Source: Dictyostelium discoideum
Taxonomy: Eukaryota
DNA length: 64,000 bases
NCBI GenBank assembly: GCA_000004695.1
Contig: CM000152.2
Location: 1,120,001 to 1,184,000, forward strand
Direction: 5' to 3'
The translations under genes were made by a program, and so were the position numbers. Below the pieces are notes generated by a model. The model was not told where the DNA came from, did not search any database, and worked only from the letters and a program-made list of their open reading frames with translations. Below, piece by piece: positions 11,712 through 46,399 of this stretch (its first letter is position 1; the number at the start of each line of letters is the position of its first letter).

Positions 11712-14700
11712 TAGATTTAATAATAATAACAATAATAATAGATTTAATAATAATAGAGTTAATATTGAAGAATGGAAAAATGATAAAGTAATAGAATGGT
11801 TAGAAAAGAATGAATTTAATCAATATGTTGAAAAGTTTAAAGAAGAACAAATTGATGGTAATACACTAATAGAATTTAGTTCAATGAATCAAAGTGATAA
11901 AATATTTGAAAGACTTGGTTTCATTCATATAGGTCCAAAAATTAATTTTCAAAGAAAATTAAAAGAATTGGTTTTATCTTCACAACCACAAAAACAACAA
12001 CAACGTCAATCAAATAATAATCAAAATAATAATAATCAAAATAATAAACATATTGTTGATTATAGTGATGCAATTCATCATATTAATAATAAACAAGATA
12101 AAGATAATAAAAAGAAATCAGAATTTGAACCATTTAAAACTGCTCATGAAATGGAGAATTATTTAAAAAAGAAAATCGTTCAAGCAGATTCTGATGAAGA
12201 TATTGTTGAATTATTAAATCATCAAATTATTAATCTTAAAGATATCATTGGTAGAGATTTCTTACAATTCTCTGTACAAGATTTACTGGTGAGAATTTAT
12301 ACACATGAAAAATTTCAAGGTGGAATTTTGGAACAGTTTTTCAATAAATTAATTTTCGAATTAATATCATCTAAATTCTTTTCATCAATTTATAACTTTC
12401 CACAGTACATTCAAGAGATTGGTAGTTTGCCACAATTTAAAGCATCGATTGATTTAATGGATTTGGTCTCCTCTAAATTCAATGATAGTATTACAATTTT
12501 ACCAGTTGAATTGTTTGAAATTAGATTCAATGAATTGAATGCTGACACCAATCAAAGTAGACTATCCAATCAAACACTTAAAACAGTTGAACATATTAAA
12601 GGTTTAATTAAAGTTTTAAAACAAAAGAAACAATTATCAAAACTTAATACAATTCAACAATTAACACAACCAATTTTCAATATTGATGAAATTAGTTATA
12701 AGAATTTACCAATAGCACCAACTCGTGATGAAATTCATTCAAAGGTATTACCAAAATTAAAACCACTTAAAATTGGTACCTATTCATCATCTGAAGAATA
12801 TATTGATACACAATTTAATCTATTAAGAGAAGATATGATTCATCCGATTAGAGAAGCTTTAACACTTATTCAAAATGGTTCTTCATCACCTTATTATTAT
12901 ACTGATGTAATTTTTAAAGGTAAAATATAATTATATATTTAATTAAATGATTATACTTTTAAATAAATATATTAATTTTTTTTTTTTTTATATATTTTTA
13001 TAATAGGATTTACAAAAACTCAAACATCATTAAGTTTTTTAATTGAATTTAAATATAGAAGTAAAATTAAATGGGAGAAATTTTCAAAATTATTAAATGG
13101 ATCATTGTTAGTATTATCATGTGATAATTTTACAAATATTTTAGTTGCAACCGTTGAAAAAAGACCAGATAGAGGTGAAGAAAAACAAATTTCAATTTCA
13201 TTTTATGGTGATAATCAAGAGAATCAAATGGATTTAATGTATTTATTTGAAAATTCATTCTCAATGATTGAATCACCAACTTATTTCGAATCTGTAAAGA
13301 ATGTATTATCATCATTACAAAGAATTAATTCCGATGATTTACCATTTCAATCATATCTTTTGAAATGTTCAGGTCAAGAGATTATTCCAAAGTATTTCCA
13401 AGATCATCCAGTTATTAATTTACAAACTACATTTGATAATACTGAACGTATCAATATTAGAACATCGGAATTTCCAGAGAGATTGGGTACATTGGATCCA
13501 AGTCAAATCGAAGCATTTGAACATTGTTTGAAATCAGAGTTATCTTTAGTTCAAGGTCCACCAGGTACTGGTAAATCTTATATTGGTGTGAAATTATTCG
13601 AAGTGATTCATAGACATTTAAAAGAGAATTCAGCAAAGAATGCTCCAATATTGGTTTTATGTTATACCAACCATGCCTTGGATCAATTTTTGGATCATAT
13701 CATTACAAACGTTACAAAGAAAGTAATTAGAGTCGGTTCAAGATCTCGTGATGAAAGAATGAAAGATTATAATATTCGTAATTTCATTCGTGCTGAAAAA
13801 AGACAGTTTGAATACTATAGACAAAGAGATGATGTAGTTGCAATACTTAAAGAGTATTTAGATACTTTTTCAAATGAATTATCATATGAAGATTTTTTAA
13901 AATTTGCTGGAAATGATTATAATAAAGGTCAAGATGATGATGATGGCGATGATGATGATGATGATGATGATGACAATGGTGGTGATATAAAATGCTCAAA
14001 TATGAATTTTAATAGATGGGGTCAATGGATAAAATCAATAAAGAAAAAGATTAAAGAAGATTTAACTTTATTAAAAGTACCGAAATCATTAAAACCTTCA
14101 ATTAATGAAATTGAAAATGAAGATGACGAAGATGATGAAGATTTAGTTGAAACCTTATTAAATGAAAGAAGATTTGATTATGGTAATATTTCAGGTGGTA
14201 GTGGTATTACTGCTCATGATATTTCAGAATATGATATTCAAAGTATTGTTACAATGACAAGATTAGAGAAAAGAGATTATAAAGATATTCAAGACATTTT
14301 CGATATTAAAGAAAATGATAGAATTTATTATTATCGTTATCTTTTAAATAAAAAGATTAGACATTCATTGAAAACCATTCAAGATTATGCAAAGCAATAT
14401 AAAGAGCTATCTGATACAATCTTGGATTATGAAAATAAAGCCTACATTAGAGCATTATCATCAGTTAATGTTGTTGCTGCTACAATTACAGGTGCATCTC
14501 GTTTGAAGAGAGTTTTCGATTCAATCAATTCAAAATGTGTAATCATTGAAGAGGCAGCTGAAGTATTGGAAGGTCATATAGTTTCAGTATTACCAAAAAC
14601 TATTGAGCATTTAGTATTGATAGGTGATCATGAACAATTGAAACCATCATGTGCAGTCTATCAATTGGCAGAGAAATTCCAATTGAATGTTTCATTATTT

Positions 14701-16623
14701 GAAAGAATCATGAAGAATGGTGGTGCACATAGACAATTATCAATTCAACGTCGTATGGTACCAAATATTTCACAATTCATTCATCCAATCTATCCAAATC
14801 TTAGAAATCATCCAGAGGTTTTAATAAGATTCGCAACTGAATCAACCATTAAAGGTATTCAAAAGAATATCTTTTTCTTGGAACATACAATACCAGAATC
14901 ATCACCAACTGAATCAACTAGTAAATCAAATCTTTTCGAAGCTGATTATGTGGTTGGTTTAGCTGATTATCTATTGAAACAAGAATATAAACCAACTGAT
15001 ATTGTCATATTGACACCATACACTGGTCAACTATTAAAGATTAAAAATCAAATTAGAAATAGAAAACATGAACTACTCTCAAAAGTACAAGTACGTACAG
15101 TGGATCAATATCAAGGTGAAGAATGTAATATAGTCATATTAAGTTTAGTTCGTTCAAATGAACGTGGTGATAGTGGTTTCGTTAAAATTAAGAATCGTAT
15201 CAATGTTGCCATTTCTCGTGCTAGAAATGCAATGTATTTGGTTGGTAATAGTGATCTATTGAGAAAAGCAAATCCAATTTGGGAAAATATGTTTAAAATT
15301 CTATCTGAACCATCCGTTAATGCCATTGGTCCAATCTTAAAGCTTAGATGTGAAAATCATAAAGATCAAATCACAAATATCACCTCTGGAAAAGATTTTG
15401 CAAATGTACCACAAGGTGGTTGTCTTTTAAATTGTTCAACTCGTTTGGAATGTGGTCATCAATGTGGTTTAGCTTGTCATATCTTTGATCAAGATCATAT
15501 CAACATTAAATGTACAAAACCATGTGAACACATTCATCAAAAGTGTGGTCATACATGTAAGAAAACCTGTTCCGATGATTGTGGTCTATGTGAAGTATTG
15601 GTTGATCGTGATCTCCCATGTGGTCATAAAAAGAAATTGGCTTGTAACATTGATCCACTTCAATATAAATGTCAAGAACCATGTCAAAAACAAAGAAGAT
15701 GTGGTCATAAATGTGAACTCAAATGTTCAGAATATTGTGAAAAGAATAATTGTAAAGAGAAAGTTGAAAAAAAACTTCAATGTGGTCATATCGAAACAAA
15801 AGAATGTTATAACAATAGTAACGTTTGTAATGCCAAATGCAAAGATATCTTACCATGTGGTGATCCTTGCTCTCAAAAATGCAAAGATCATAAAACAGCT
15901 CAATTTGGAATTCGTAGTCATCCACCTTGCTCAAAGAAAGAATGTACAAGAGAATTGTTCTGTGGTCATAGATGTAATAGTCAACATGCATGTAGTTCAG
16001 GTTCTTGTGGTGATTGTAAAAAGAAATGTCTAAATGCTTGCACTCATTCAGTTTGTAATACAGGTTGTTCAAAACTTTGTAACCCATGTAGAGAGAAATG
16101 TAAACGTGGTTGTATTCATGTTGGTAAATGTAAAAACCTTTGTAAAGAACAATGTTCCATCAAGAATTGTGATCAAAGATGTACAAAAAAATTACCATGC
16201 AAACATCAATGTATTGGTTTATGTGGTGAAAAATGTGTTTCAATTTGTAGAATATGTAATCCAGATTATTTAGAACCAATCACTCGTATGAAGTTAAGTG
16301 AATTCGATGAAAATGATTGTTTCATTGAACTTCATAAAGGCCATGTCTTCCTCGTTGACAACTTGGATACCTTTATGAATATTAAAGATGAAAGTGGTAA
16401 GATAGTTCATAAAAAGTGTCCATCATGTAATATGATCATCTCTGCTAAAGATGCTCCAAGATATAAAGATATCATTAACAAAACTTGGAATCAAATAGAT
16501 TCAATTAAAAGAAAATTAATGGAACGTGTAACAAAAGAAGAAACTGATATGGTTGTAAAAGCAATGGGTGGTGCTGCTGGGTATGTTTTTTTCTACTTTA
16601 TTAATTATAATAATAATAATAAT

Positions 16624-16698
<75 letters not shown>

Positions 16699-32306: not shown

Positions 32307-32877
32307 ATGTCACAAGATCACTCAGTTTCAAAAAGACTACAAAGCGAATTAATGAATTTAATGGTAAGGAAATATTACATATATAATATACACAAAAAAA
32401 AAAAAAAAAAAAAAAAAGTATTAATATTAATTATTTATTTATTTATTATTATTATTTATTTTAAAATATAAGATGGGACCAAGTCCAGGTATTTCAGCAT
32501 TTCCAGATGGTGATAATATATTTAATTGGATTGGTACAATTCAAGGAGCTAAAGATACAGTTTATGAACAAATGGAATTTAAGATGTCATTAAAGTTTCC
32601 AACTGATTATCCATATAAACCACCAACAGTTAAATTTGAAACTCAATGTTTTCATCCAAATGTAGATAATAATGGTAACATTTGTTTGGACATTCTCAAA
32701 GATAAATGGTCACCAGTTTACAATGTTAGAAGTTTATTAATCTCAATTCAATCCTTATTGGGTGAACCAAACAATGAATCACCTTTAAATTCATATGCTG
32801 CAAGCTTATGGTCAAACCAAGATGAATATAAAAAAGTTTTAGATAAAAGATATCAAGAAGCAACTTCAAGACCATAA
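32307..32877 (+). CDS. ube2c: Ubiquitin-conjugating enzyme E2 C (UbcH10-like), 2 exons: join(32307..32363,32473..32877), 153 aa.
   Basis: Exon 1 [19 protein letters not shown] ends at a GTAAGG donor, and the 109-nt intron ends TATAAG. Exon 2 reads [79 protein letters not shown], with the HPN and catalytic Cys of the UBC fold and a close match to UBE2C. Confidence 0.85.
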
Positions 32878-34368: not shown

Positions 34369-37300
34369 ATGAATAGTATTGAAAGTTCTTCTAATGATAG
34401 CAATGAGATAAATAAAAATTCAAACAAAAATAATACACACTTAAACTCCAACTATAATAATATTTATAAAAATAATAGCACTAGTAGTAATAATAATAAT
34501 AATCATAATAATATTGAAATTATTGGGATAGATAATAATAAAAATAATAATAAAAATAATAACGATAATAATAATAATAATAATAATATAGATAAAAAAA
34601 GAAAGGATAGTAAAAATAAACAAAACCAAGAAATAAATCAAGAAATGTCAGAAAATAAAAAAATTTATAATAGTAATGATAGTAATTGTAGTAGTGGTAG
34701 TAGTAGTGGAGGACATGTAAATAATGGTCATCATATATTAATTGAAGAGAATGAAAGATTAGAACATGAAAATCAAGAGATTCAAGAAATTTATAAACAA
34801 AAGGGTATGGAATTTCAAAAAAAAGATTTAAGATTTGGATATGATGTTAATAGTAATAATAATAATAATAATGGTGGTGGTAGTAGCAGTGGTAGTAGCA
34901 GTGGTGGTAGTGATGAATCTGCTTCAAATCAACCTATAATTAGAACTAGAAATAGAGAAGGTTCAATTTTAAATTTAAAGGTAAATTAAAAAAAAAAAAA
35001 GAAAAAAAAAAATCCAGGATTTCCAATATTTTCCAAGAAATTTCTTTATTTATTATATTAACTATTAAAAAATAAAAAATAAAAAAATAAAAAAAAATTA
35101 TTTAGAAACAAGGTCTTGTAAAAGAAATTAGTCAAAGATTTCAAACACCAGATACAGCATCATATACAAGACCAAATGCAAATAATATTTCAATTAAAGA
35201 TAAAATTTCTATATTAAAAAAGGAGCAAGAAAGAAGAAAACAAGATTCAGAAGTACAACAACGAGAAAAGGTTATAGTATTATCAGCAGATAGTTCAAAT
35301 ATTCAAATTTATCATCCCTCTGTTTTAATAGAAAAAATGAATAGTAAATTGGATACCGAAGAAAAGCCAGCAACAACGACAACAACTACTACTACAACAT
35401 CAACATCAATATCAACATCAACACCAACAACTACTACTACTACTACAACTAATACTTCTACTACTAATGATATTACAATTAAACCAAAAACATCACCAAC
35501 AAAAAATAATGAAGAAAGATCACAATCACCAATTACAACACCAAAACAACCAGTTGAAGAAATTGTTAAAAAAGTATCAACACCAAAATCAAATAATACT
35601 TCTAAAAAGACATCATCCGATACAACACCAACAGGAAAAACAACTAAAAAAGATAAAAAAGATAAAAAAGATAAATCAAGAGATAGTGGTAATTTAGTAA
35701 TTGTTAATAATACTAATAATACTAGTAGTAATAATAACAATAATAATAATAATAATAATAATAATGAAACAATTATAAAACGTAGAGGTAGAGTTTTAGT
35801 TACACCATCAAGTGATTTAAAAAAGAATATTCAAATTTATTTTACAATTCCAATAAATCCACCAGTAAATAAAACCAATAAACCAAATCAATTATTATCA
35901 AATACATCACAACAATTTTTAAAAACATTAATTTCAAATGAAATTCCAATCGATTGTAAAATCAATGATATCAACGATACTGATGCATTTTCCGATTTAT
36001 CAGCATCAGCATCATCATCATCATTTATAACAAAATCATCACAATCATTATTAAATGTGCAATCATTAAGAGTTAAAGCAATTAAAACATCATTTAATAT
36101 TTTATTTTTAATGCCAAATCAATCTAAAAAGATTTTACAAGTTAAAGGTTCAGATACAATTGAAAATTTAAAAGAAAGAATAATTTCAGATTATTTATTT
36201 AATAATAATAGTAATAATAATAATAATAATTGTAAATATGGAGCAGATTCTTATTTAATATTAGATTTTAATGATAATCCAATGGAAAGAAGTTTAGTAT
36301 TGAATAAAAGTGATTATATATTAGATAAAAGAGCACAAGGTTTAATACCAAAATTAAAAGTTATTGAAAAATCAACAATTTTAGATTCAGATCCATCTGA
36401 TGAATTATCACCAAGTGAATATGAAATTATTAGAAAATTAATACCAGGTACAGATACATGGAGAGGTGAAGAAGTTGAATACTTTAGAAGAGTTACAAGT
36501 AGATTAAGATATGAAGCATTACCATTGATTAAAGGATCAATTCAGTCTACTCTATTGGTTAGATTATCACCATTACCAATACCAATAGTTGGTAATAAAA
36601 TATTGATTTCTATATTTTTACCAATTACTCAAGTTACTAAAACATTGGATTTGGAATTGAATGAAACTGCCGATCAATTTACAAATAGATTATTTACAAA
36701 AAATTATTCAAAACATTTACCAAATGTAAATTCAAATGATTTCATATTAAAAGTAGTTGGTAGTTCAGATTTTATTCATGGTCCACATGATATTCGTACT
36801 TTTGAATCAATTAGAAATCATATAATTCAAGGTACAAAACCACAATTAACATTAATTCAAAGACCAAAACCAGAATTAGATCCACAACCATTTAAACCAC
36901 GTTTTGATTATCCACCAGAATTAATAATTGATCATAGTTGTAGTAATGCAATTAATTGTAATAATAATAATACAAATAGTACAAATAATAATAATATAAA
37001 TTTTGATAATTGGGATCAAATTACACATATTTCTATTAGAGAAATTAAAAAACCATTTAGAGTTAAAGTTATGGGATCAACTAGAATACCATTATCATGT
37101 ATTAAAGATATTGATAGTAGTAGTGTTATTGTTTCAATTTCATTATATCATGGTATTGAATGTTTTTCAAAAGCATTCACTCAACCAATTATACCACCAC
37201 CATTTGCATTTTTAGCTGAAACTTTATCAGTTGATTGGTGTGAATGGTTAGTTTTTACAAATATTGATTATTCAAATTTACCAGTGGATGCACGTTTATC

Positions 37301-39209
37301 AATTAGTGTCTATAGTGCAAATGAAACAGTTGATGATGTTGAAGAAATTAAAAATCTTGATGAAGCAACTAAAAAGTTAACACCAATTGGTTGGATTAAT
37401 GTTATGATTACTGATTTTAAATATCAACTTAGACAAGGTATGGTAGAATTATCGTTATGGCCATCTGATTTTTCAAATCCACTTGGTACTTGCTCAAATA
37501 ATCCATCAAGTAGTCAATCAGTTGGTTTAACATTAGAATTTGAAGAATTTAATTTACCAGTTTTATTCCCAAGAAAAACTAAATTCTCTACAAGTGTCTC
37601 AGTTATTGAACAACCACCAACCAATATAAATTCAAATGAAATGAGAGAATTCTTTGAGCAAATTACAGCATTAGACCCATTATCAGATTTAAAACAAGAG
37701 AAATATAATCAACTTTGGACTTTAAGACATTATTCAATTTTATTCCCACAAGTTTTACCAAGATTAATGTTAAGTGTACCATGGACTCAAGCAACTGCAG
37801 TAGATGAAGCAATTTCATTACTTGATAGATGGCCAAAACTTAAACCTTATGAATCATTGGAATTATTGGATGCAAAACATGCAAATAGAAAAGTTAGAGA
37901 ATTTGCAGTTACATGTTTAGAGGATCTTAGTGAAGATGAACTATTAGATATTCTATTACAATTAGTACAGGTTTTAAAATATGAACCATTCCATGATTCA
38001 AAATTATCAAGATTCTTATTAAGAAAAGCAATTTTAAATAGAAATATTGGTCATTCATTCTTTTGGTATTTAAAATCAGATTTACATGATAGTAATTTAT
38101 CAGAAAGATTTGGTATACTTTTGGAATCTTATTTGTATGCATGTGGTGCACATAGAATTGAGTTATTAAAACAAATGGAAGTTATTAATAATTTAACAGA
38201 GGTTGCAAAGAAAATTAAACCATTAAAAGATCAAGATAGAAGAGAATTTATGATTAAAGAATTTGAAAGTTTAGAATGGCCAAAACGATTTCATCTTACT
38301 TTAAATCCACGTTTTGAATCAAATGGTTTAATAATTAATAAATCAAAATATATGGATAGTAAAAAGTTACCTCTAAGATTATCTTTTACAAATACCGATA
38401 TGAACGCTGACCCTATTGAAGTGATTTTCAAAGCTGGTGATGATTTAAGACAAGATATGTTAACTTTACAAATGATTAGATTAATGGATAAGTTATGGCA
38501 AAAAGAAGGTTTAGATTTAAAATTATCTCCCTATGGCTGTATTTCAACTGGTGATATGATTGGTATGATTGAAGTGGTGTTAAATTCTGAAACCACTGCT
38601 AAAATTCAAAAAAGTGAAGGTGGTGGCGCTGCTTCCGCTTTCAAGTTGGATCCTTTGGCCAATTGGATATTGCAACATAATAAAAGTGATATGGAATATC
38701 AAAAAGCTGTAGACACATTCATACTCTCTTGTGCTGGTTATTGTGTTGCAACTTATGTACTTGGAATTGGTGATAGACATAATGATAATTTAATGGTTAC
38801 AAAAGGTGGTAGATTATTTCATATTGATTTCGGTCATTTCCTTGGTAATTATAAAAAGAAATTTGGTTTCAAAAGAGAACGTGCTCCTTTTGTTTTCACT
38901 CCTGATTTTTGTTATGTAATGGGTGGTAAAGAATCTTTTAAATTTAGTCAGTTTGTAAATTATTGTTGTACCGCTTATAATATCGTTAGAAAGAATGCTA
39001 AATTATTTATGAATTTATTCGCTATGATGGTTTCTACTGGTATTCCAGAATTACAATCTATGGAAGATTTAAATTATTTAAAAGAATCTTTTTCAATAGA
39101 ATTATCTGATGAAAAAGCAAGGGAGAAATTTGTTGCTTTAATTCATGAAAGTTTAGCTACAAAAACTACTCAACTTAATAATTTTTTTCATCATCTTGCA
39201 CATGCTTAG
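34369..39209 (+). CDS. pikA: Class I phosphatidylinositol 3-kinase catalytic subunit, join(34369..34980,35106..39209), 1571 aa: an N-rich N-terminus, Ras-binding, C2 and PIK helical domains, and the PI3K/PI4K catalytic domain.
   Basis: The catalytic block reads GDDLRQDMLTLQMIRLMDKLWQKEGLDLKLSPYGCISTGDMIGMIEVV...GIGDRHNDNLMVTKGGRLFHIDFGHFLGNYKKKFGFKRERAPFVFTPDF. Exon 1 is an N-rich ORF whose first ATG is at 34369 and which ends at an AAG/GTAAAT donor. The 125-nt intron ends TTATTTAG at 35105. Frame stays open from 35106 into the 1290-aa ORF. The 1571-aa length matches what I recall for Dictyostelium PI3K1; that symbol is tentative. Confidence 0.8.
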
Positions 39210-39218
39210 TCAGCCAAT

Positions 39219-39253
<35 letters not shown>

Positions 39254-39959
39254 AAAACAAAACAAAAACAAAACAAAAAAAAAAAAACAAAACAAATAAA
39301 TTATTTAAAAAAACAAAATAAAATAAATAAACTTTTTTAATATAGTTTTAATTAAAAATAATTATTTGAATATTTTTTTTATTTTTTATTTTTTTTTTAT
39401 TTTTGGGGTAAATCTATTTTTTGTTTTTTTTTTTATTAATTTATCCGAATATTACCCCTCTAAAAATGACCCTAAAATATTTTTTATTTCTGACAGACAA
39501 TATAATAATTATTTTATAATTAAAAATTTCTAAAAATGGAAAATAATTTGGGTCCATAGATTTTTTATGGTAATTAAAATGCATTATTTTTAAAAAAAAA
39601 AAAAAAAAATTCCCAAAAAAATAATTTTTAATAATATTAAAAATAAGTTACAATTTTTTTGAAATTTTTTCCCTTTCGTCTCTTTATAGATATCAATACT
39701 AATTTTAAGTCTCCTTTGACTTAATTTTTTAAAAATTATTCCCAAAAATGTTGGATAGTAACTCGCTCTAGAATCAACAATTTTAAATTCTGAAACCCAT
39801 CAAAAATATCCATCAAAATCAATTTGGTTTTATATCACAACCTACAGGTAGGTATATCAAATCAAAAAATTGACAAAGGTATTTTATAAGCTAACAAAAG
39901 AATTAATTCATTATTAAAAGACAAATAAGGAATAATTATTCATATATAGATTCAGTTTT

Positions 39960-41600
39960 TAGTGAAATAATTGATGTTTTAATAAAATCAAATACTTCAA
40001 ATCCATTTCCTTCTTCAGAATTTTCAAATGGTATATATGAATTTTTCTTCAAAAAATTTATTAAAAATCAACAATCACCAAAATCAATTTTTTATTTATT
40101 CTTTGGATTAAAACCTAAATTAAGAGAATATGATGTAGATTTGGTAATAGATTTATTCCTTAAAGAAAGTTTAGATAATCAATCTTTGTTTTATAGATTA
40201 TTTTCATCTTCATATTTGTGTAATCGAGAATTAGTTTTAAATAATCTTTTTGATAGATTTGTCAAGTCTGAAAATAGGAATTTTAACATAATAGATAAAT
40301 TACTTCGTTTATTATAAGTTCATAGATTTGGTACTATTAAAAAATCAAAAACCTTCCAAACATTGAAATCCTTTGTTAATGGTAATGATTATCCAATTTT
40401 TTTGGATTTCAAGGTCTTATTATCCATTTTTCTCTCAAAAAAACTTGGGTTCAATTTATTTGATCATTTTAAAAATGATTTATTACCAGATTTTTTTAAA
40501 AATTACAATCAGTCTTTCATTATTTTAAAAAACAATTTTCCAAAATTTTTTAACAATTTTTCGCTAAACCATTATAATGCAGAGCCTTTATTAGTGTAAG
40601 TTTAATACATGATAAAATAAAATAATAATAATAATCTTTATTTATTAATTGTTCTTTTTTTTTTTTTTTAAAAATTAATTCCAGTTTATTAAATTCAAAT
40701 GGTTGGACCATCTTCAATAGTACCATCAAAAATTTTAGTTAATTACTTAAATCAATTTCTAATAATTTCTGAATCAATTGAAGAACCAATTTTTACTTCA
40801 AATTTTCAAGTTTTTTGTACAGTTTGTAATACTCTAACTAAATCAAATCCAATAATATTTGAATTTTCAGTAAATCGATCAAATGATATACAAAGTTGTG
40901 TTGAAAATAGTTTATACAAGTAAACTGGTCAAATTGAATTTTGTAAAAATTGTAAAAAAGATAATATTGGAAGACTATCTTTAAATAATATTCCATCACA
41001 TTTATTAATCTCTATTGATAGAGTAAAAAATGGTGAAATTTCATTCCAATCATTCAATTTAATTGAAAAAATAAGTATTGGTGATTTTAGTTTTATTGGT
41101 AATCCAATTCCATTAAATAATCAATTACATTCAATCATTATGTCAAATGGTGAAAAAAGTTCAATTCATATTAATCAAATTGAAAATAAAGCAATTAGAT
41201 GTACGAGTGGACATATATCATATTAATAGAAATGATTTTTTGGATTATGAAAAAAGAAATTCAATTTTAATAATTTATAAAAATAAAAATAATAACAATA
41301 ACAATACGAATAATATAAATAATAATATTATTTATAATAATAACCAATTTGAAATTATTAAAGATATAAATAATTTTAATAATTTATCCAAACAACAAAT
41401 TATTGATAGTGGTCTCAATAACTATTTGGTTACTTGGGTAAATAAATTACCAATTGGTGAAAATCAACTTTTTGAAATTTCCAAGAATTTAGAGACAAAT
41501 AACATAAATAATTTCAAAAATGCTTTTTCAATTTCAGATTGGGACTCTATCATCAGTACAAATGGTCCCAAGAATATATTTTTAGAATACCTTAGATAAC
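39960..41600 (+). pseudogene. Degenerate ubiquitin carboxyl-terminal hydrolase (USP/UBP, peptidase C19)-like gene remnant.
   Basis: Three ORFs lie in two frames. USP His-box-like motifs are present: CTVCN...CKNCKK...IPSHLLISIDRVKNGEI...FIGNPIPL...HSIIMSNGEKS...SGHISY. An in-frame TAA follows ...SLYK at 40921, and there is a +1 shift between ...SGHI and YHINRNDFLDYEK. No Cys-box was found, and a possible GTAAGT...CCAG intron at 40597..40683 does not rescue the frame. Confidence 0.5.
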
Positions 41601-41693
41601 AATAAAAATAAATAAAAATAATAATAATTAATTAAAAGATAAATAAATAAATTAAACTTTTATTTTTTAAAAAAACATATTATTGTAAAGAAT

Positions 41694-44600
41694 TTAATTT
41701 AAACTTTCAATAAAATCTTTTAAAGTTTTTAAAATTTCATTAAAAGTGAAACCATCGATTGGATTCCAACATTTATGAATAAAGTTTTTAATGTTTGGAT
41801 CAATTTTATCTAAACCTATTGATGGTTTTTCTTGGCCAAATTTGCGAGTATCACCAACTAAAATTTCATCAATTAGTAATTCATAAGATAAGACTGCAAA
41901 TGAATGAATATTATACTTTAGTGAACTACTATTATTACTATTATTACTATTATTATTATTATTATTATTATTATTGTTGTTGTTATTATTATTATTATTA
42001 CTATTATTACTGTTATTAAAATCATTGTTTTGTTTTGGATCTCTTATAATTGAAATTTCTCTGGTTAAATTAATTGGTGTATCAACTCTTTCTATATAAT
42101 TATTACAAGCTAATCCTTTAATAGTTTTACTTGATGTTAGATCTAATACTTTAGCACAAACCTCTGCATTTTCATTGGTATCATAAAGGAAAATATTTCT
42201 AGCTCTTAGAGTTTTTTGAATGATTGAACTTTGTTGAAGGAATTTACAACCTTTGGCAACATCAATAAGAATTCTAATCTTTTGAGTGATTGACATTTTT
42301 AGTTTCTTTTTTGAAATTATATAATCCAAACTTCCAAGGGGTGGATATTCAAAGGCTAAACATAAATAATCCTTTGAAATTACACAACCAATCAATGGTA
42401 AAATATTTTGATGTTTTAATCTACTAATAATATTTAATTCTCTATAAGCTTCTTCACAATTTTTTGTTTTTAACTTTATCAATTTAAGTAAAGCATTTTT
42501 ATCTCCAACTGTTCCTCTATATAATATCTCCCATGAATATTTCTCTATCAACTCTTGGAAATGAATATCATTAAAATCCAATCTTGTCGAGGATTCACTT
42601 TCAACCTTTATTTTGAGTAGAGTATACATTTCTTTAATATTATTTGAATTGATTTGAATTGAAAAATTTTCAAAAAACCTTGTTGTACAATGTAAAGTAA
42701 TTGAAAATTTTATTGAAAATGTTTCACCTGGACCAAGATCAAATGATGAATGATCTGATGTAAAAGTGGCTGAATGATTATCCATTGGTAAAATTAAAAA
42801 TGCTGTAAATCTTATTGTTGAATCATTTGTAATTGAAAGAGTATCATAATAGGTTTCACCTAATTTTGCTTTTCCATTAATTAAACCAAATGTTATTATA
42901 CTTTGATTAAACCTTAATGGGAAATTTGAAAAATCTTTAAAATCTGATAATGCGCAACATGTCAATATATCATTTGTTGTTCTAAATGAAAAATCTAATC
43001 TCTTTTCTCTTTTTAATATTTCAAATGCTAATTTTTGAAATTCTAAAGTTTGAAATTCATCTGGAAATGTACTATTTATAATTGGTATTGTATCATTACT
43101 AATTTCATCAATTTTAAAACTTTCTAATTTATTTGAATAAATTTGATAATTATTATTACCATTACTGTTACTATTACTATTACTATTACTATTACTATTA
43201 ATATTAATATTACTATTACTATTACTATTATTATTACTGTTACTATTATTATTATTATTATTATTATTACTATTACTATTACTATAATTACTATTACAAT
43301 TACTATAAATAATATTATTACTATTATTATTATTACTATTATTATTATTATTATTATTATTAAAATAATTATTATTATTTAAACTTTGATTTTTAAATTT
43401 ATATCTATTATTATTTTTTGGTATTTGATTATTAAATATTGAATCTGATGATATTGTATCTAATATTGATATTGATGGATAAGATGAATGACTTGTAATT
43501 TTTGGTAAAACTTTAATTTCAATTTCATTATTTTGGGCATATTCAATATCTTTATTTGATTTTGAGAGGAATTGAGATAATCTTTTTCTATGTTTAACTA
43601 TTAAAATTGTAATGATTGATAAAGCCAAAGATCCTAAAACTATTGATAAAACAATTGCCAAAATAGCTGGTTTACTAGCTTTAACACTTTCAATGGGTAA
43701 TAAGGTTGGTGTTATTGGATCAATAATTTGAGGTAATGAATCACTAACTGAAAAGATTGCCAATGATGTTAAATAAATATCACCACGACTTGTGAATGAA
43801 ATATTTAAAAAATCGAGTGATTGTGTGTTATTATAAACAAATGTTAAATTTTTTGAAAAAGGTTGATCGCCAGCGAATGGTTCCATCACTAAAACTGGAT
43901 TTTTTTGAATAGATACAGATAATGGACTTGAATATTGATCGATTGGTTTATAAAAAGTGAAAAATAATTGAACTTGTAAAGTTGCTATTGATTTATTAAT
44001 AAATAAATCAATTATAACTGGATCATATTGAACATCTGATGTAATTCCCCAAGAAAATAAACTATTTAATGTTGATGAGGCTGTAACATTTGGTAAACCA
44101 CCAACATATTTTGCATTACTTGAAAGTTGGCAACCTAAAGTTTTTATACAACCACCTTGAAATTTTAAACCATCCAATTCATTTATTTTATTATTATTAT
44201 CATTAACTAATTGATTATTATTTGTTGTTGTTGGTGTTGATGTTGATGTTGATGTTGATGTCGATGTTGGTGTTGGAGTTGGTATTATTGTTGTTGATGT
44301 TGGATCAATCATTTGCCAACCAGCATTAAATAAAGATTGTCCATAAACAGTTATAATTGGAAAATCAATTATAAAATAATAACTTGAATCTTTAGAATAT
44401 TCATTTTTAATTGTAACACGAATATTATGATTACCTAATTTTTCAGATACATAAAGAAAACTACATTTTGTTGAGATTGGATTATATTGAACCTCTTTTG
44501 ATTCCATACCATTGGATGAGAAAATACAAATGATTGGAGTTTTTAAACCCATATTATTCAATTTAACTGAAAGAGAAACTGAAGAATTGAAAAACATTTT

Positions 44601-46399
44601 ATGAGGTTCATTTGGATAAACAGTTTCAACTTTTAATGAATCCAAAACACTTTTACTAAAATAATAAATTGGAGTAATCGATGACCCAAATACTTTTTCA
44701 GGTGGTTCAGTTGTTTCTGGTGACCCATAAATATAAGTATTTTGAAAGTTTGTGACTGTAGTTGTTGTTTCATCAAAAAACTTTTGTGTTGAAGTTAAGT
44801 TTGTATTAAAACTTGAATTTATAAAATCTAATCTTGAAACTGTACCATTGAATGAAAAATTTTCGGTTGCATTTAAATTATTAAATACTAATGCACTATT
44901 TGGTAAATAAGCTGAAACTGTATCTGATGCTACTAAATCTTTAATTGTAAAAAATCTTCCTGGTGAATTACCATTATTATTAATATTTAAAAGATAATGA
45001 TTTTGTGAATTATTATTATTATTATTATCATCATTATTATTATTTTCATTATTAATATTTAATAAGTTAAAATTGTTTGTATTATTATTATTATCATTAT
45101 TATTATTATTTAATTTATAAAAATAAGTTGAATTATTAATTTTAAAATCAACAGGATATTGAATTAAATTTGAAAATAAAATTGAAGTATTTGTACAAGG
45201 TGAGTAACAATCATTATCAAAACCTGTTATAATGGACCTATTACCAATGAAATTAAAATTAAGAGCAATCAATTGAGAAATAAAAGTATCATTTATTGAT
45301 TGAACATTTGGAGATAATGAATAGATTCCATTACCTTCAAATCCATAATCCATACTAAAAGGTGAAGGAAAATTGATAGGGGAATTTAAACCGAACGGTT
45401 GTGGTAGTGGTGGTATTAAAAAGTAATGATTTAATTTTGATTTTATAAATTCAGTGCCATATTGAGCGATTAAATTTGAACCTGATTTACTAACTATTAA
45501 ACTCTCTGATAATGATACATTTGAACTAACGAAAATGAGTGGTGCTCTAGATTCTTTAACTCTATCAATGATAGCACAACCTTTTATAACTACACTATTT
45601 GAAAATTCTATATACAATGAGTTTCTAAATCTTTGATTTTCACCCTTTATTATATCGATCACTTGATTTGGTTTATCATTTGAGAAAATTAATTTCGTAT
45701 CATTATAAAGTTTATTGGTGGTTTTACCTATTGAATCCAATGTAAAATTTTCAATTTGAACTTGTGAATCACCAGTTATATATATAGATGATCCAACAGT
45801 CGATGTAGAATCTATAAATGATTCACTTGAACCACCTAATAAATATTTACAATTAAAATGAACTATTATATTTTTATCATTTTTTGAAATTGGTAAACAA
45901 TTGGTTCCTCTTAATGATGACGATGATGATGATGTTAAATTAATTTTATCATTACTTGCTCCAAATGAAAATGAACATGTTTGACCTTCTGAAATTTGTT
46001 GACTATAAATTGTAACTTTTGAACCTAAATATATATTGTTTGTCAATGATCCTATTTTTTTGAAATCTTCAATTTGTAATTGATAATCATCAATTCTAGT
46101 GGCTTGGAAAATTCTTTTTTTCTCTCCAATCAATGATAATGATCCTCCCAAAACCATCATACCTGGAAAGAAATTAAATGGATCCATTTTTGAATTATAA
46201 GGATCTAAATCTGTAAATCTGATACTTGATTTACTATTTAATACACCACCTGGTAATATAAATAAAGCTCCAACATTAAAAAATGATATACCTTCTGGAA
46301 TTTCTAATGTTCCTTCAATACATAATACATTAATTTTATAAATTGGTATTCCACCATTACCAACTCTGTATTTCATTTTTGTCCCTATTTAATAATTAT

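Follow-up and report, generated by a model that had tools for sequence, protein, structure and literature searches.

A disabled Dictyostelium discoideum gene next to pikA, probably a unitary pseudogene with a USP-like fingers ancestry

Does the interval between pikA and the next, kinase-like gene of Dictyostelium discoideum contain working genes, as the present annotation proposes, or the remains of a single dead one, and in that case from which family? The window analysed here is the whole stretch of 64,000 nucleotides (nt) covering positions 1,120,001 to 1,184,000 of the forward strand of contig CM000152.2 (assembly GCA_000004695.1), and all coordinates below are counted from its first letter. 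A preliminary sequence-only reading had described positions 39960-41600 as a decayed deubiquitinase pseudogene of the USP/UBP type. The present analysis indicates that the interval very probably holds a + strand gene remnant which has been disabled, in other words a pseudogene. A probability of roughly 0.6 is given to the complete reading, namely a unitary pseudogene, one that lacks any intact counterpart elsewhere, of a single-copy, lineage-restricted D. discoideum gene with a USP-like fingers ancestry.

Five colinear open stretches of 137, 94, 77, 101 and 161 codons follow one another on the + strand (39904-41599). Those at 39904-40315, 40315-40597, 40690-40921 and 40921-41224 are in frame mod3=1, and the last one, at 41114-41597, is in frame mod3=2. 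The longest of them has 160-161 codons; when the region was shuffled 500 times, the longest stretch averaged 56 codons and never exceeded 113. With log-odds of codon usage learned from the large open reading frames (ORFs) of the window, each stretch scores positively in its proposed frame (0.39-0.73 bits per codon) and negatively in the two other phases; for the real genes of the window the values are 0.75 +/- 0.17 in the correct frame and -1.15 outside it. On account of this shuffle comparison and of the frame-specific codon score, the five stretches are more than a chance occurrence. The three ORFs in two frames that had been noticed earlier are indeed present between 40699 and 41599. The 3' part of the extent first proposed is retained, but not its start, the coding-like feature beginning near 39904/39921. 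The exon of the first stretch has a probable start at an acceptor ending in ...AAAAG, with 39921 as its first base; this stretch is devoid of an in-frame ATG, and its conceptual product is predicted to be helical with low confidence. Upstream, the region 39400-39960, which had been singled out as poor in homopolymer runs, is moderately so: its guanine-plus-cytosine (GC) content is 0.20 with 14% of its bases in A/T runs of at least 6, compared with a GC content of 0.08-0.16 and 27-44% in most spacers of the window. The window allele is disabled at four sites, two in-frame TAA stops and two frameshifts, which are placed below among the open stretches. L001 designates a diverged allele described thereafter.

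39536-39551 and 39772-39847, + strand: putative upstream exons, used solely by the predicted model ACTFIT_010201 (protein P0002), with no recognisable USP Cys box
39904..40314, + strand: open stretch 1, frame mod3=1, 137 codons; codon score 0.48 in frame, -0.85/-1.06 out of frame
40315..40317, + strand: in-frame TAA stop common to the window and L001; the same frame is open 94 codons further
40318..40593, + strand: open stretch 2, frame mod3=1, 92 of the 94 open codons, running to a splice donor; codon score 0.39
40594..40684, + strand: genuine-looking intron between stretches 2 and 3, 91 nt, GT..AG, GC 0.12, GTGTAAGT...TTCCAG
40685..40920, + strand: open stretch 3, with a G missing from a GGG run near 40704
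about 40704, + strand: loss of one G of the GGG run, just 3' of the intron 40594-40684
40921..40923, + strand: in-frame TAA; CAA (Gln) in L001, TAA in a second assembly
40924..41219, + strand: open stretch 4, frame mod3=1, ending in ...AIRCTSGHIS(Y); codon score 0.73
41215..41224, + strand: frameshift site, ATATATC--ATATT in the window against ATATATCATATATT in L001
41222..41599, + strand: open stretch 5, frame mod3=2, reading INRNDFLDYEKRNSILIIYKNK, then an Asn-rich run and a tail of about 75 amino acids (aa), ...NIFLEYLR; stop TAA at 41597-41599; codon score 0.49

The sequence-only reading had reported the TAA at 40921, which is present at 40921-40923, and the frameshift, which is found at about 41216-41224, where mod3=1 gives way to mod3=2 between ...CTSGHISY, followed by two stops, and DIYHINRNDF. 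This list of damage was nevertheless incomplete, the TAA at 40315 and the loss of G at about 40704 having been missed.

The nature of these lesions becomes apparent by comparison with L001. An exhaustive search with HMMER (profile hidden Markov models, HMMs) returned P0003, a 64-aa ORF of the Logan contigs (...CTSGHISYINRNDFLDYEKRNSILIIYKNK...) in which the frame is intact across the window frameshift. This protein is carried by 9 contigs, and L001 is the one that was retrieved (SRR28564541, 2505 nt); it is 97-98.5% identical to the window, and its source isolate is roughly 1.5% diverged. L001 reads CAA at 40921, and its TATAT tract at 41219 is longer by one AT (SGHISYINRNDF), so that a continuous ORF of about 196 codons results. 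It is intact at three of the four lesion sites of the window, the TAA at 40315 being common to both alleles. The stop at 40921 thus reads as a nonsense change from C to T that belongs to the window lineage alone, and at about 41219 the loss of 2 nt (AT) by slippage converts SGHISYINRNDF to SGHISY and two stops. The TAA at 40315 is a nonsense lesion as well, and probably the oldest or founding one.

L001 carries in turn lesions of its own. Two are single-base indels, a -1 at 40181 and a +T at 40738; another is the deletion of 74 nt (41324-41397), through which P0003 ends at a premature stop; and the segment 39737-40465 appears to be inverted. L001 also shows a +G at 40704, an in-frame -3 at 39966 and, in the donor region, an A in place of T at 40595. 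Altogether, the two alleles differ by five frame-breaking indels in addition to the apparent inversion. The inverted segment, L001:351-1094 (about 0.74 kb from the N-terminal half), has its junctions at palindromic TTTTAAAA motifs, in ATTTTTAAAA(A)T contexts with only about 10 nt of overlap. Both junctions are found in one contig, and the segment may reflect a true inversion or a chimeric contig. The genes called by Logan on L001 were evidently predicted with a code in which TGA is Trp, P0003 (L001:1761-1955) ending with W where the DNA has TGA; the antisense "gene" at L001:1364-1759 (- strand), with several internal stops under table 11, is an artefact of a prokaryotic caller. No exact-protein record was found among the contigs for the window's own ORFs (74, 150 and 78 aa) or for P0004, the product of the annotated model DDB_G0278777.

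The reconstruction of the frame across the intron 40594-40684 identifies the remaining lesion. This intron holds the sole + strand GTAAGT within several kilobases. All 8 combinations of two possible donors and two 1-nt indels were read through, and a single one is open: exon end at 40593, acceptor at 40685, phase 0, the G of L001 present and the T absent as in the window. It reads ...NAEPLL/FIKFKWLGPSSIVPSKILVNYLNQF..., and with the G restored and splicing in phase 0, ...AEPLL/FIKFKWLGPSSIVPSK... is uninterrupted across the intron. Since only the combination with the G present is open, the window allele must have lost a G at about 40704; phase 0 would accordingly be the ancestral splice phase. 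The retention of this AT-rich GT..AG intron also indicates that the locus is not a retrocopy.

The in-frame substitutions between the window and L001 amount to 9 nonsynonymous (stop included) for 1 synonymous, over 1275 nonsynonymous and 300 synonymous sites, four differences beside the L001 inversion junction being excluded. Such a 9:1 ratio agrees with omega=1 (P=0.40), and omega<=0.2 would seldom produce it (P<=0.005). One common lesion, differing private lesions and neutral-looking substitutions therefore lead to a pseudogene that decays independently in two lineages. The recent pseudogenisation suspected from the sequence is upheld in this way: its stop and frameshift are the same in the second assembly, GCA_054883475.1, and are absent from L001, which bears other lesions. 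The locus is now most likely without activity of any kind. A programmed frameshift or a readthrough was considered and rejected as unparsimonious, given four lesions of differing kinds, alleles that differ and neutral-looking substitutions. A transposon remnant was ruled out too, the region matching only itself within the window and having no relatives in the protein libraries.

Which family did the gene belong to? This question was addressed with a USP HMM built from 120 diverse PF00443 proteins obtained by a consensus-seeded search, of which 110 full-length domains were used, and run with hmmsearch --max, unfiltered. A search seeded with USP2 had been tried as a source for this profile; it yielded nothing beyond vertebrate orthologues above 82% identity and gave way to the consensus-seeded set. 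One segment of the locus is aligned:

40807..41037, + strand: USP "fingers"-like segment, QVFCTVC...(TAA)...EFCKNCKK..RLSLNNIPSHLLISIDRVKNGE, colinear across the TAA and the annotated "intron"

In this segment, about 40 residues separate two CxxC pairs, after which comes a strand of the LP..L.I.L.R type (CTVC...CKNC...IPSHLLISIDR). The features of the fingers subdomain, a zinc ribbon with two CxxC pairs and then an LP..L.I.LKRF strand, are thus found, if weakly. The sole alignment to the USP HMM brings QVFCTVC...SNDIQSCVENSLYK(Q)TGQIEFCKNCKK..RLSLNNIPSHLLISIDRVKNGE to positions 157-243, the fingers, with 7.7-8.2 bits, a score reached by 4 of 3000 shuffles using the full HMM. With a sub-HMM limited to the fingers, the score is 11.5 bits, and none of 2000 shuffles and none of 300 control windows (maximum 6.3) are as high. 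In hhalign, columns 134-243 are matched with P=9e-4 to 1.5e-3 and a probability of 17-23%. A USP ancestry of the locus is slightly favoured on these grounds, and it would rest on the fingers, not on the His-box motifs that had first suggested it. The central 80-100 residues probably derive from the zinc-ribbon fingers of a USP/UBP-type domain. Membership of the USP family cannot be claimed. The fingers point to an ancestor that would have been a highly divergent USP-like protein, possibly already non-catalytic; if it was a USP at all, it was ancient and had diverged strongly, rather than being newly duplicated.

Several results weigh against the reading proposed here, on its USP side as well as on its allelic side. 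No Pfam family was matched at E<=10 by the conceptual translations, the allele-repaired ORF, P0004 or P0002, and the gathering score of UCH/UCH_1 was not reached. The Cys box (G-L-x-N-x-G-N-T-C-[YF]-x-N-[SA]) remained unaligned on the + strand in a six-frame HMM scan of 39200-41700, and the upstream exon candidates were not aligned either by a sub-HMM of that box, in agreement with the lack of an upstream Cys box noted from the start. The QQD box (QQDA.EF, in the thumb) obtained -1.0 bits with its sub-HMM, and 849 of 2000 shuffles were as high. The His box (H.G....GHY..., then W..F[ND]D) obtained -0.9 bits (823 of 2000 shuffles as high), so that the His-box-like motifs of the sequence-only reading score the same as shuffled sequence. 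With a 16-residue insert removed post hoc, this box reached 3.5 bits (19 of 2000 shuffles), and hmmalign left the entire C-terminal part unaligned to the USP HMM. With the full-length HMM, one of 114 control windows from unrelated ORFs scored above the real sequence. The USP ancestry relies on one local alignment of about 85 residues, picked after the motifs had been seen. Single-sequence AlphaFold2 without alignment gave a mean pLDDT (predicted local distance difference test) of 36.4 for 521 aa and 31.6 for 199 aa, which is uninformative on the fold. On the allelic side, the count of substitutions is based on 10 changes in one contig. L001 itself amounts to a single, short Logan contig, and several of its indels, being located in homopolymers, could be read or assembly errors; the junction of the 74-nt deletion and the restored frame at 41219 are exempt from this caveat, the spanning protein P0003 being exact in 9 contigs. 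GCA_054883475.1 probably comes from the same NC4-derived laboratory lineage as the window, and a history specific to that lineage could still apply. Finally, a short product, for instance the 228-aa model, may be expressed.

Two observations touch on these profile comparisons. The false-positive control was a Cys-rich window of a ZNFX1/NFX1-type superfamily-1 helicase at 13105-16698 (+ strand; AAA_11, AAA_12, ZNFX1), with 8.8 bits. An eye-level candidate for the Cys box, G(stop)(stop)LALESTILNS against GL.NLGNTCY.NS at about 39760-39800, had no profile score and was discarded.

The alternative that survives best is a pseudogene of an orphan gene unrelated to USPs, in which CxxC...CxxC would be a generic zinc ribbon and the USP likeness a coincidence. 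We regard it as unlikely, while taking it seriously. Besides the failure in Pfam and the three unsupported boxes, this alternative is favoured by the absence of any PDB sequence match at E<=10 with phmmer and by a BLASTP comparison to USP2 that produced only non-colinear scraps of 10-36 residues. The exhaustive search, over 1.84 billion representative proteins, returned no USP; it matched only models of this locus, relatives more than 50% identical being hidden in the same clusters. No paralogue or distant orthologue is consequently detectable, and the earlier idea of a "DUB paralog" (a deubiquitinase paralogue) is not supported. A word-indexed search with the 521-aa conceptual protein (39940-41599) missed even the models that are 98-100% identical, Asn-rich words having filled its list of 8000 candidates, and is uninformative for that reason. 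In addition, the four Cys account for about half of the fingers score, their replacement by Ala lowering it from 11.5 to 4.9 bits, and the hhalign probability is low. A coincidence does not easily explain, however, that the match to the fingers keeps its colinearity along about 85-100 columns and extends to features other than Cys, S.I...F before the first CxxC and k.l.i..lP..L.i.l.R after the second. Nor does it explain that the match surpasses all 2000 shuffles and all 300 control windows, which are taken from real ORFs, or that it keeps P at about 1e-3 without the cysteines. At eye level only, the order of the parts is also that of a USP, with a helical N-terminal part, fingers, a beta-rich GH part and a hydrophobic ...ILIIYKNK end. 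The initial USP/UBP call is in this manner reduced to a weak local match to the fingers; its His-box similarity is not retained, and the Cys box, the QQD box and Pfam give it no support.

A second alternative is provided by the annotation itself. The models of the locus, DDB_G0278777 in AX4 and ACTFIT_010201/010202, are 97-100% identical to it and comprise the following elements.

40699-40909, 40961-41200 and 41364-41599, + strand: DDB_G0278777 (P0004, Q54XS4, XP_641956.1), 228 aa
40699-40894, + strand: first exon of ACTFIT_010202 (P0001), 223 aa
39536-39551, 39772-39847 and 39921-40317, + strand: ACTFIT_010201 (P0002), 162 aa, ending at the common TAA
40910..40960 (40895-40960 in ACTFIT_010202), + strand: annotated "intron 1", 51 or 66 nt, GC 0.22, donor GTTTAT or GTTGTG
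41201..41363, + strand: annotated "intron 2", 163 nt, donor GTACGA

Under this hypothesis, one or two small functional genes exist as annotated, DDB_G0278777/ACTFIT_010202 (223-228 aa, three exons) and ACTFIT_010201 (162 aa, to the TAA at 40315), and the introns that contain the stop and the frameshift are true ones. These models are present in GenBank, in UniProt (Q54XS4) and in a second annotation, all the proposed introns have GT..AG ends, and the codon usage is gene-like. The hypothesis appears nevertheless improbable. "Intron 1" encloses the TAA at 40921 and the second CxxC (CKNC), hence part of the only motif supported by a profile, and "intron 2" covers the frameshift together with the GH motif and the Asn-rich run. 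In L001 the two stretches belong to the coding frame; they have an exon-like GC content and are short or non-consensus. The GC content of 0.22 in "intron 1" is to be contrasted with 0.12 in the clear intron nearby. The two annotation pipelines moreover disagree on the first donor (40895 against 40910). Because they are coding in L001 and because of this disagreement, the annotated introns are best understood as devices to step over the lesions. The ATG at 40699 is in frame solely through the 1-nt deletion near 40704, 94 codons are open past the supposed stop of ACTFIT_010201, and neither model has a Pfam domain or a relative. DDB_G0278777 is not mentioned in the literature searched. The sequence-only reading had held that a messenger RNA with introns removing the stop and the frameshift would speak against a pseudogene; such introns occur only in the computer models DDB_G0278777 and ACTFIT_010202, where they are implausible. 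Both interpretations deal with the same DNA (40699-41599 and 39536-40317): the models convert the lesions into introns and two genes, whereas the present reading recognises one disabled ORF. DDB_G0278777 and the ACTFIT models are probably gene-finder artefacts that splice around the lesions and split one former ORF in two.

About as improbable as working genes of the annotated form is that some natural isolates of the D. discoideum clade, or sister species, keep an intact copy encoding a very divergent USP-like protein, invisible to Pfam and lacking the canonical boxes. The laboratory lineage would in that case be a recent natural knockout, and the locus a segregating loss-of-function polymorphism of a ubiquitin-binding pseudo-deubiquitinase.

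The weakest alternative, that the reference assembly is in error at the stop and the frameshift and that the gene is in reality intact, could invoke the error-prone contexts of the (AT)n/TATAT tract and of the G run, and is yet scarcely credible, since GCA_054883475.1 (CM142509.1, 6.43 Mb, locus L002), a separately assembled chromosome (6,429,748 against 6,357,299 bp), carries the same stop and frameshift and is base-identical to the window over 39244-44599, since the TAAs at 40921 and 40315 are substitutions and not homopolymer errors, and since the latter is also found in the diverged L001; the sequencing frameshift envisaged in the sequence-only reading can be abandoned. The sole difference between the two assemblies over 6.9 kb is a poly-A tract at 39220-39243, just past the pikA stop, which is 9 A shorter in GCA_054883475.1. 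De novo Nanopore assemblies of AX2-214 and of wild isolates have been produced under PRJNA1300491 (PMC12745789), to which GCA_054883475.1 presumably belongs; if it is AX2-214, it has the NC4-derived lineage in common with AX4.

The history of the pseudogene may be outlined as follows. The ancestor would have been a + strand gene extending from about 39.5-39.9 kb to 41599, with at least one real intron (40594-40684) and a product of roughly 530-600 residues. From N to C terminus, its layout would have comprised a helical part, USP-like zinc-ribbon fingers, a region rich in beta structure and a tail of about 120 residues. Gene death probably began with the common TAA at 40315, or with the loss of a 5' exon or of the start codon. 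Later decay would have proceeded by AT-biased substitution (CAA to TAA) and by slippage in G, T and AT runs. The two lineages would be decaying independently and recently, which may be why long open stretches and codon bias are still present.

The comparison with known systems helps to situate this locus. Like the USP/UBP deubiquitinases (MEROPS C19; PF00443 UCH, PF13423 UCH_1), it has a central segment colinear with the fingers and, at eye level, GH..Y, ND and ILIIYKNK in the order expected of the C-terminal region. It differs from them by a gap of about 20 residues from SNG to GH, against 5 in the 110-domain consensus (HSGSLSSGHY), by the lack of Cys and QQD boxes, of a detectable His box and of a Pfam match, and by a frame broken four times. 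Catalytically inactive USP-like proteins exist, for example USP39/Sad1, USP50, USP53/54 and PAN2, and "Inactive USP50" entries are present among the members of the USP profile. If the locus is USP-derived, its ancestor may similarly have kept the fingers and not the catalytic boxes; those proteins, however, are intact, conserved and recognised by PF00443, which is not the case here. The tgr pseudogenes of Dictyostelium consist of truncated or disabled frames differing between close isolates (PMC12745789), a situation comparable to the one described here. They belong to a large and actively duplicating family, whereas this locus has no detectable paralogue.

Regarding the neighbouring genes, the assignment of pikA fits the ORF at 35337-39209, which encodes the class-I PI3-kinase set of Ras-binding, C2, PIK and catalytic domains. 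The downstream neighbour is a minus-strand ORF at 41694-46376 with a partial protein-kinase domain. This 1560-aa ORF matches the kinase profile at positions 28-146 of 258 only, contains long Asn/Ser repeats and is part of a 2401-residue product in the model of the second assembly. Upstream of pikA, a 134-aa ORF (32473-32877, + strand) resembles by eye the core of a ubiquitin-conjugating enzyme (E2/UBC).

The pseudogene is ordinary in kind and has no bearing on any long-standing open question; what is new is a correction of the annotation. DDB_G0278777 (Q54XS4) and the two ACTFIT models would be better re-annotated as a single pseudogene, which bears on proteome counts and on screens or knockouts aimed at "hypothetical proteins". 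The locus also offers a small and clean case of gene death under way in an AT-rich genome, with one common founding lesion and then differing slippage-type lesions in two lineages. An intact orthologue in a wild isolate, if one exists, would open access to a very divergent USP-like protein.

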